NCBI RefSeq assembly: GCF_024700885.2
Contig: NZ_CP117016.1
Source of the DNA: Escherichia coli
GTDB lineage: Bacteria > Pseudomonadota > Gammaproteobacteria > Enterobacterales > Enterobacteriaceae
Length of the DNA: 64,000 nt
Strand: one strand, 5' to 3'
Shown: one piece after another, positions 29,289 to 29,654 of the stretch
Layout: each line of letters begins with the position of its first letter
Numbering within the stretch: the first letter of the stretch is position 1
Translations under genes and position numbers: made by a program
The notes under the pieces: model-generated
Told to the model about the DNA's origin: nothing
Database searches by the model: none
Seen by the model: only the letters and a program-made list of their open reading frames with translations

Positions 29289-29654
29289 GGGCCGCTTTCG
29301 CGGCCCTTGAAACTGATGGCAAAGGCAAAACTGCCTGATGCGCTACGCTTATCAGGCCTACATACTTCCTGCAATATATTGAATTTTCACGATCTTGTAG
29401 GTCGGATAAGGCGTTCACGCCGCATCCGACATGAACAACGCGCACTTTGCCAATAATCTGAAGGGCCGCTTTCGCGGCCCTTGAGACTGATGGCAAAGGC
29501 AAAACTGCCTGATGCGCTACGCTTATCAGGCCTACATGCTTCCTGCAATATATTGAATTTGCACGATCTTGTAGGTCGGATAAGGCGTTCACGCCGCATC
29601 CGACATGAACAACGCGCACTTTGCCAATAATCTGAAGGGCCGCTTTCGCGGCCC
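29289..29654. repeat. tandem duplication of a 174-bp BIME-containing unit (2 copies plus a third hairpin)
   Basis: GGGCCGCTTTCGCGGCCC hairpin recurs at 29289, 29463, 29637; units near-identical apart from a few SNPs; each carries two inverted REPs. Confidence 0.85.

Follow-up and report, generated by a model that had tools for sequence, protein, structure and literature searches.

Tandem hairpin-plus-BIME-1 units downstream of tktA in Escherichia coli, and the bracketing of BIME-1 elements by duplicated hairpins

What is repeated in the spacer downstream of tktA in this Escherichia coli genome, and how did the repeated unit come to be present twice? We analyzed a 64,000-nucleotide stretch of contig NZ_CP117016.1 (assembly GCF_024700885.2), referred to below as the window. 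Tandem Repeats Finder (TRF) reported an array at 29287-29656 with a period of 174, 2.1 copies, 98% matches, no indels, and a score of 719. The two 174-nt units (29287-29460 and 29461-29634) were given as 98% identical by the repeat finder and differ at three single-nucleotide polymorphisms (SNPs), 29311 A/G, 29364 A/G, and 29387 T/G (98.3% identity, 1.7% divergence). A 22-bp hairpin, AAGGGCCGCTTTCGCGGCCCTT, is present in three exact copies starting at 29287, 29461, and 29635. Its 18-nt core, GGGCCGCTTTCGCGGCCC, starts at 29289, 29463, and 29637, exactly where a preliminary description made from the letters of the window had placed a hairpin recurring with a 174-bp period. The tandem duplication with few SNPs noted in that description is likewise borne out by the 2.1 copies and the three differences.

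The array is a tandem of hairpin-plus-BIME-1 units with the layout H1-BIME-H2-BIME-H3, one unit being a hairpin together with a complete BIME-1 (RIP/RIB type). Each BIME-1 is ~152 bp long and runs in the order A-end, Z1 REP, L linker with an IHF-like site, Y REP, B-end. As the preliminary description had it, two inverted REPs surround a conserved linker in each unit (GCCTGATGCGCTACGCTTATCAGGCCTAC and the inverted GTAGGTCGGATAAGGCGTTCACGCCGCATCCGAC), and all four REPs fold as hairpins. We assign these REPs to the Z1 and Y types from the consensus sequences and the literature definition; an inverted pair made of one Z1-type and one Y-type REP, as in each unit, is the composition of a BIME-1. In the anatomy of the unit, the A-end of copy 1 reads TTGARACTGATGGCAAAGGCAAAACT, and the 35-nt L linker includes TGCAATATATTGAATTT. 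At the junction between the units, B-end, H2, and A-end together make a 54-nt extended palindrome (29445-29498; DNA fold, -20.6 kcal/mol; z, -8.0). Open reading frames of 49, 93, and 178 amino acids within the array were dismissed as spurious because they run through the repeats; PGAP annotates nothing there. The features of the locus, with the evidence for each, are as follows.

28375-29283, plus strand: prohibitin-family (SPFH) gene (PGAP annotation of strain MLI114; open reading frame list)
29282-29288, minus strand: A7 run, which is U7 on the tktA strand, directly after H1 (sequence; terminator scan)
29287-29308, minus strand: hairpin H1, core 29289-29306, minus-strand loop GAAA (repeat finder, terminator scan, fold)
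29307-29332, plus strand: A-end of BIME-1 copy 1, TTGAAACTGATGGCAAAGGCAAAACT, an imperfect terminal inverted repeat with the B-end (sequence)
29333-29361, plus strand: Z1-type REP of copy 1 (fold; BIME-1 defined as z1 plus y in PMC3333891)
29362-29396, plus strand: L linker of copy 1, 35 nt, with the palindrome CAATATATTG inside (sequence; Rfam match)
29372-29384, minus strand: IHF-like site in the L linker of copy 1 (consensus scan)
29397-29430, plus strand: Y-type REP of copy 1, inverted relative to the Z1 REP (fold)
29431-29462, plus strand: B-end of BIME-1 copy 1, ATGAACAACGCGCACTTTGCCAATAATCTGAA (sequence)
29461-29482, no strand assigned: hairpin H2, the junction between the units (repeat finder)
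29481-29636, plus strand: BIME-1 copy 2 (sequence)
29481-29506, plus strand: A-end of copy 2 (sequence)
29507-29535, plus strand: Z1 REP of copy 2 (sequence)
29536-29570, plus strand: L linker of copy 2 (sequence)
29546-29558: IHF-like site of copy 2 (sequence)
29571-29604: Y REP of copy 2 (sequence)
29605-29636: B-end of copy 2 (sequence)
29635-29656, minus strand: hairpin H3, core 29637-29654, 20 nt past the tktA stop codon, without a U tract
29677-31668, minus strand: tktA (tkt, transketolase; PGAP annotation of MLI114; open reading frame list)

The prohibitin-family gene and tktA converge, and the array is their spacer, so the placement of the hairpins between convergent genes in the preliminary description agrees with the annotated coding sequences. 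E. coli strain MLI114 matches the array and its surroundings at 100% identity over 951 bp; in this strain, PGAP annotates nothing between the prohibitin-family gene and tkt. The prohibitin-family gene has weak matches to HflC/HflK, and its stop codon (TAA, 29281-29283) overlaps the A7 run. Within this gene, a 33-bp imperfect tandem repeat (29071-29148; 2.4 copies, 77% matches) encodes a recurring alanine/glutamate-rich stretch near the C terminus of the protein. Comparison of the K-12 cmtB-tktA spacer (L002, 2832-3144) with positions 27999-29676 of the window revealed that the cmtB-tktA spacer of K-12, like that of about two thirds of E. coli genomes, contains no prohibitin-family gene. At the matching position downstream of tktA, K-12 has a hairpin of unrelated sequence, GGTCGCCGAAGCGACC, enclosed by A6 and T5 runs. 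Since K-12-like genomes lack the gene and have a different hairpin, the prohibitin-family gene and the hairpin/BIME spacer belong to a strain-variable segment. In strain XJ34 (L102), and also in XJ6-3, an IS200C element (Y1 transposase family) has inserted precisely where the stop codon of the prohibitin-family gene gives way to the A7 run of H1, at the position equivalent to 29283/29284 of the window, which on the tktA strand is directly past the terminator U tract.

The three hairpins are identical, and only H1 was reported by the terminator scan. On the tktA strand, H1 combines a GC-rich stem of 9 bp with a GAAA tetraloop and a U7 tail, which makes it an intrinsic terminator by sequence on the minus strand only; the suggestion that the first hairpin, with its minus-strand U7, could terminate tktA transcription is credible given the A7 run and the scan. 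On the tktA strand, the hairpin reads GGGCCGC-GAAA-GCGGCCC, and H2 and H3 are followed by UUCAGAUUAUU, with no U tract. The plus-strand tails are UUGAAAC, UUGAGAC, and UUCUCAC, so that a U tract follows none of the three hairpins in that direction. The 22-nt hairpin folds as DNA at -11.5 kcal/mol, and RNA stretches of 37 nt that include it reach -18.9 to -22.7 kcal/mol (-18.9 for H1 with its U7 tail). Compared with intrinsic (Rho-independent) terminators, H1 is alike in stem, GAAA loop, and U7, whereas H2 and H3 are the same hairpin without a U tract and therefore are not canonical terminators. The label "terminator-plus-BIME unit" used in the preliminary description consequently holds for the hairpin and the BIME and goes too far for the terminator, as the U tract is found at H1 only.

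Since H1 is the only hairpin that carries U7 on the tktA transcript, we infer that the tktA mRNA ends there. The transcript would read through H3, BIME-1, H2, and BIME-1 before ending at H1, which would give a highly structured 3' untranslated region (3' UTR) of ~395 nt with four REPs. The predicted 3'-UTR RNA folds at -196.2 kcal/mol (z, -13). H1 is probably the original tktA terminator, which would now lie ~350 nt further downstream. The doubling would lengthen the predicted tktA 3' UTR by 174 nt and add a second putative IHF-type site; any effect of this on tktA expression is a prediction from the sequence.

Next, we turned to the number of units in other strains, a comparison that the preliminary description had proposed. 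Across 5,426 complete E. coli genomes, the prohibitin-tkt spacer falls into discrete size classes. Genomes were assigned to classes with queries that only one class matches in a single piece, under strict E-value limits; coverage figures are unusable for this purpose because overlapping pieces of one-unit alleles add up to 100% coverage. At least 409 genomes have zero units (query: the empty junction of left flank, one hairpin, and right flank), ~1,213 have one unit (1,364 with at least one unit minus 151), and 151 have two (query: a 194-bp segment connecting the L cores of units 1 and 2). None of the 5,426 genomes matched a synthetic three-unit equivalent. The rest are K-12-like, with no prohibitin-family gene and the unrelated hairpin after tktA. 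The empty allele, TAAAAAAAGGGCCGCTTTCGCGGCCCTTCTCAC, contains exactly one hairpin, and in one-unit alleles BIME-1 is already flanked by a copy of the hairpin on each side, an arrangement that the preliminary description had missed. In the one-unit allele of ST131, the two hairpin copies have diverged (loops TTTC and ATTT), indicating that the two-hairpin arrangement is old. Both the zero-unit and the one-unit states are found on diverged haplotypes.

The two-unit set includes diverged versions (97.9% identity) with units orthologous to those of the window. For example, the units of the JNE25-001 allele are orthologous to the window units and further diverged. In GF4-3, both units share a private L-core variant, TGCAATCTATTG, and the nearest relatives of this strain have one unit; the private base in both units together with the one-unit relatives identifies an independent second doubling. 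The allele series and the recurrence of the doubling were thus observed directly. The preliminary description had also called the duplication recent and had named assembly collapse or expansion as what would refute it. The first of these points stands on weak ground, given the divergence of 1.7% and the sharing of the allele by 151 genomes, diverged versions among them. As for the second, the 348 bp of repeats exceed a short read, and an assembly from short reads only could miscount the copies. However, the two-unit structure and its unit-specific SNPs recur in 151 independently assembled complete genomes, the alleles fall into discrete classes of 0, 1, and 2 units, and the TRF score is 719. 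We consider it barely conceivable that the array arose by expansion during assembly or reflects chance similarity. The 151 two-unit genomes and the independent doubling in GF4-3 indicate that the array is neither an assembly artifact nor especially recent.

How, then, did the second unit arise? Identity between the two units is 98.3%, whereas with BIME-1 copies at other loci it does not exceed ~91%; the second copy is therefore of local origin. Because the hairpin is present on both sides in the one-unit allele, the hairpin repeat predates the doubling and would supply the homology for it. The simplest account, and in our view very probably the right one, is misalignment of the flanking hairpins. 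The starting point would be the empty allele, in which one GC-rich hairpin lies between the convergent genes and, with U7, serves as the tktA terminator. A BIME-1 of ~152 bp would then occupy the hairpin site, the hairpin on both of its sides forming a 22-bp direct repeat. These repeats, 174 bp apart, could misalign in unequal sister-strand or homologous exchange or during replication slippage, adding one hairpin-plus-BIME-1 module of 174 bp and yielding H1-BIME-H2-BIME-H3; the reciprocal event would yield the single-hairpin (zero-unit) allele. Tandem arrays of hairpin plus BIME-1, each with a different hairpin, were also found in other Escherichia, next to gcvP (173 bp, 2.1 copies) and srmB (176 bp, 2.1 copies). 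A hairpin-bearing array adjacent to tcdA (L087, 13901-14685) has at least 4.8 units of 162 bp and runs off the end of the locus.

Amplification by TnpA-REP/RAYT, through cleavage and strand transfer at REPs as proposed for BIME-2 and atypical arrays, is another conceivable route. In its favor, tandem BIME-1-like arrays without hairpins, with periods of 107 to 115 bp, occur in other Escherichia (L085, L092, and L093). At tktA, however, the repeat boundary lies at a hairpin that is not a REP, the 174-bp period spans this hairpin and both element ends with no REP-to-REP junction, and BIME-1 elements are reported as single copies (PMC3333891); we therefore regard this route as quite improbable here. 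Among the hairpin-less arrays, MOD1-EC7003 carries 7 units of 107 bp, the L085 array lies at 2719-3380, and the spacing in L092 and L093 is ~115 bp.

We also examined BIME-1 elements at other loci. A second BIME-1 in the window lies in the fbaA-mscS spacer (~15480-15690; L core 15578-15597, minus strand), flanked on either side by a copy of a terminator hairpin, CCCGCTCTGCGGG plus a T run. About two thirds of E. coli genomes have this element; others, such as Nissle 1917, NU14, and one ST131 strain, lack it and keep exactly one hairpin. The artJ-rlmC BIME-1 of K-12 likewise lies between two hairpin copies (AGCCGC...GCGGCT). In 86 scanned loci, we located the element ends by the A-end motif GAGACTGATGACAAACG and the B-end motif CTTTGTCAGCAATCTGA, whose consensus sequences are complementary at 13 of 18 positions; 29 full-length loci remained after orthologues were collapsed. 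In nearly every case, the best hairpin in the adjoining 45 nt directly abutted the element, at a distance of 0 on its left side and of -2 to 0 on its right. The same locus-specific hairpin stood at both ends in 13 of these 29 nonredundant loci, and one more had a diverged pair; the other full-length loci had a hairpin on the left only (6), on the right only (4), or on neither side (4). The flanking repeats are 14 to 29 bp long, with the length tracking the size of the hairpin. At all five loci for which an empty allele was compared, it contained exactly one hairpin:

tkt: empty allele with one hairpin
fbaA-mscS: empty allele in Nissle 1917, with one hairpin
artJ-rlmC: empty allele in PA45B, with one hairpin
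agp-yccJ: K-12 compared with E. whittamii, empty allele with one hairpin
metE-ysgA: E. coli compared with E. albertii, empty allele with one hairpin

Bracketing of BIME-1 by a duplicated hairpin is a general pattern. An origin of the second hairpin by fold-back (quasi-palindrome template switching) was rejected, as the copies are direct repeats and not reverse complements; hairpin loops and stem asymmetries have the same orientation in both copies (TTTC/TTTC at tktA; also at L013, L035, L047, and L076). A third allele of artJ-rlmC is found in EC6622 (L096), where the hairpin is present on the right only and the left hairpin is missing along with 9 nt of flank. The BIME parts of the EC6622 and K-12 alleles are 86.5% identical and the flanks are 93% identical; the EC6622 element may stem from a separate insertion or may belong to an old haplotype that has diverged.

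The bracketing pattern also bears on the doubling at tktA, as the resident BIME-1 might have been reinserted into its own flanking hairpin, duplicating the hairpin once more with no recombination between repeats. In favor of this, many loci have BIME-1 flush against a hairpin that recurs on either side, the empty alleles retain a single hairpin, a further insertion, at H1 or H2, would produce exactly H-BIME-H-BIME-H, and arrays of at least 4.8 units exist. Such an event would nevertheless have to draw on the adjacent copy as donor (98.3% identity, against at most ~91% elsewhere) and to reproduce both the orientation and the exact 174-bp register, which misalignment of the 22-bp direct repeats does more simply while also explaining the zero-unit allele. 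For these reasons, we regard reinsertion as unlikely and prefer misalignment, with the proviso that unequal recombination, slippage, RAYT strand transfer, and reinsertion of the resident element leave outcomes that are indistinguishable by sequence alone.

The flanking repeats look like a hairpin-sized target-site duplication. BIME-1 has terminal inverted repeats and, next to them, direct repeats of which an empty site has only one copy, as in miniature inverted-repeat elements (MITEs). The alternative to target duplication is precise excision between the repeats; the two processes are mirror images of each other, and either direction fits the alleles. Tentatively, and as something short of probable, we propose that BIME-1 behaves in the manner of a MITE, inserting at the hairpins of intrinsic terminators and duplicating each hairpin in full; the extent of the duplication would be set by DNA structure (14 to 29 bp), with no fixed stagger. 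According to a review, REPs "do not display MITE signatures," and Y1 transposases of the IS200/IS605 type, which are relatives of RAYTs, make no target duplications. A RAYT gene is absent from this window. The literature that we surveyed makes no mention of flanking hairpin duplication or terminal inverted repeats of BIME-1, and the older primary literature may describe them. In the order A-run, hairpin, BIME, hairpin, T-run, each convergent gene would still meet a hairpin with its own U tract on the far side. Termination would survive, both 3' UTRs would gain the element, and selection in favor of such an arrangement might contribute to the pattern.

If BIME-1 does insert in this way, the outer hairpin and its U tract would stay functional for each convergent gene, and the leftover direct repeats could later drive precise loss and tandem amplification, as at tktA. 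The same flanking repeats would also explain the reported presence/absence polymorphism of BIME-1. A structure-defined duplication would explain how BIME-1 elements build up at the 3' ends of genes without broken termination, and it would constrain the mechanism, given that an IS200/IS605-type Y1 transposase should leave none. It would further be the first clear target-site signature for the spread of REP/BIME elements, a question standing since the 1980s, and a terminator hairpin might be usable as a trap. By itself, the doubling at tktA is a minor copy-number variant of a well-known repeat, and its value lies in exemplifying the hairpin-bracketing rule.

BIME-1 is defined by z1 and y REPs around a long conserved L linker, often with an IHF site, and is described as occurring in single copies, which is a descriptive property and not a structural requirement (PMC3333891). 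The location of BIME-1 (RIP/RIB) at 3' ends and its presence/absence polymorphism are already known, and one annotated RIP contains a "REPt" terminator. The inner ~155 bp of the unit has 9 to 32 matching places per genome in 5,425 of the 5,426 E. coli genomes, the best other BIME-1 matches being 88 to 91% identical. The family also occurs in E. albertii, E. whittamii, other Escherichia, and Pseudocitrobacter, and an exact scan covering these groups and E. coli found the L core TGCAATRTRTTGAATTTGCA kept across the 86 loci. As expected of BIME-1, the elements are extragenic, dispersed, and present or absent between isolates (empty alleles at tktA and at four other loci). The single copy per locus that is typical of the family does not apply at tktA, where there are two tandem copies. 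A look-up of RIP/REP repeat_region annotations in MG1655 for homologous elements returned no features, with one queried position falling inside rlmC and not in the spacer.

The putative IHF site, ATTCAATATATTG, agrees with the consensus WATCAANNNNTTR at 12 of 13 positions, and such matches occur at chance frequency in the window. The consensus scan was discarded as evidence of binding, as it was uninformative (69 matches versus 58 expected by chance). We infer IHF binding at the L linker by analogy, from the literature on the L motif. Both L linkers match Rfam family ES036 (CssrF) on the minus strand (29354-29396 and 29528-29570; 49.3 and 44.4 bits; gathering threshold, 37.6), and the Y REP regions give subthreshold matches to naRNA4 (CssrE). 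The ES036/CssrF and CssrE families appear to correspond to segments of BIME repeats and not to unique genes. The likeness to the ES036 small RNA is one of repeat identity and gives no evidence of a separate small RNA gene here.

In comparison with MITEs and with REPINs, which RAYTs mobilize, BIME-1 is alike in being short and noncoding, with imperfect terminal inverted repeats and flanking direct repeats that are single when the site is empty. Its flanking repeat, however, is of variable length and consists of a whole locus-specific hairpin of 14 to 29 bp, which is atypical for a MITE. With BIME-1 elements as described, the array shares the inverted Z1 and Y REPs around the conserved L linker. 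Whereas those are single copies, the element here is repeated in tandem together with a non-REP hairpin, in two copies at tktA and in at least 4.8 in another Escherichia; the tandem unit of BIME-1 and a non-REP hairpin is what sets this array apart. The array resembles BIME-2 and atypical BIME arrays in its strain-variable tandem copy number at a fixed intergenic locus and in the closer resemblance of copies within the locus than of copies elsewhere. In those arrays, the repeated parts are Y and Z2 REPs joined by short linkers (S, s, l, or r), and the period runs from REP to REP. At tktA, the partner of the Y REP is a short Z1 and the linker is L, and Z2-type REPs were seen only at other loci (L075 and L090). 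Unlike in BIME-2, what is repeated at tktA is an entire BIME-1 together with a terminator hairpin specific to the locus, and the units join at this hairpin.
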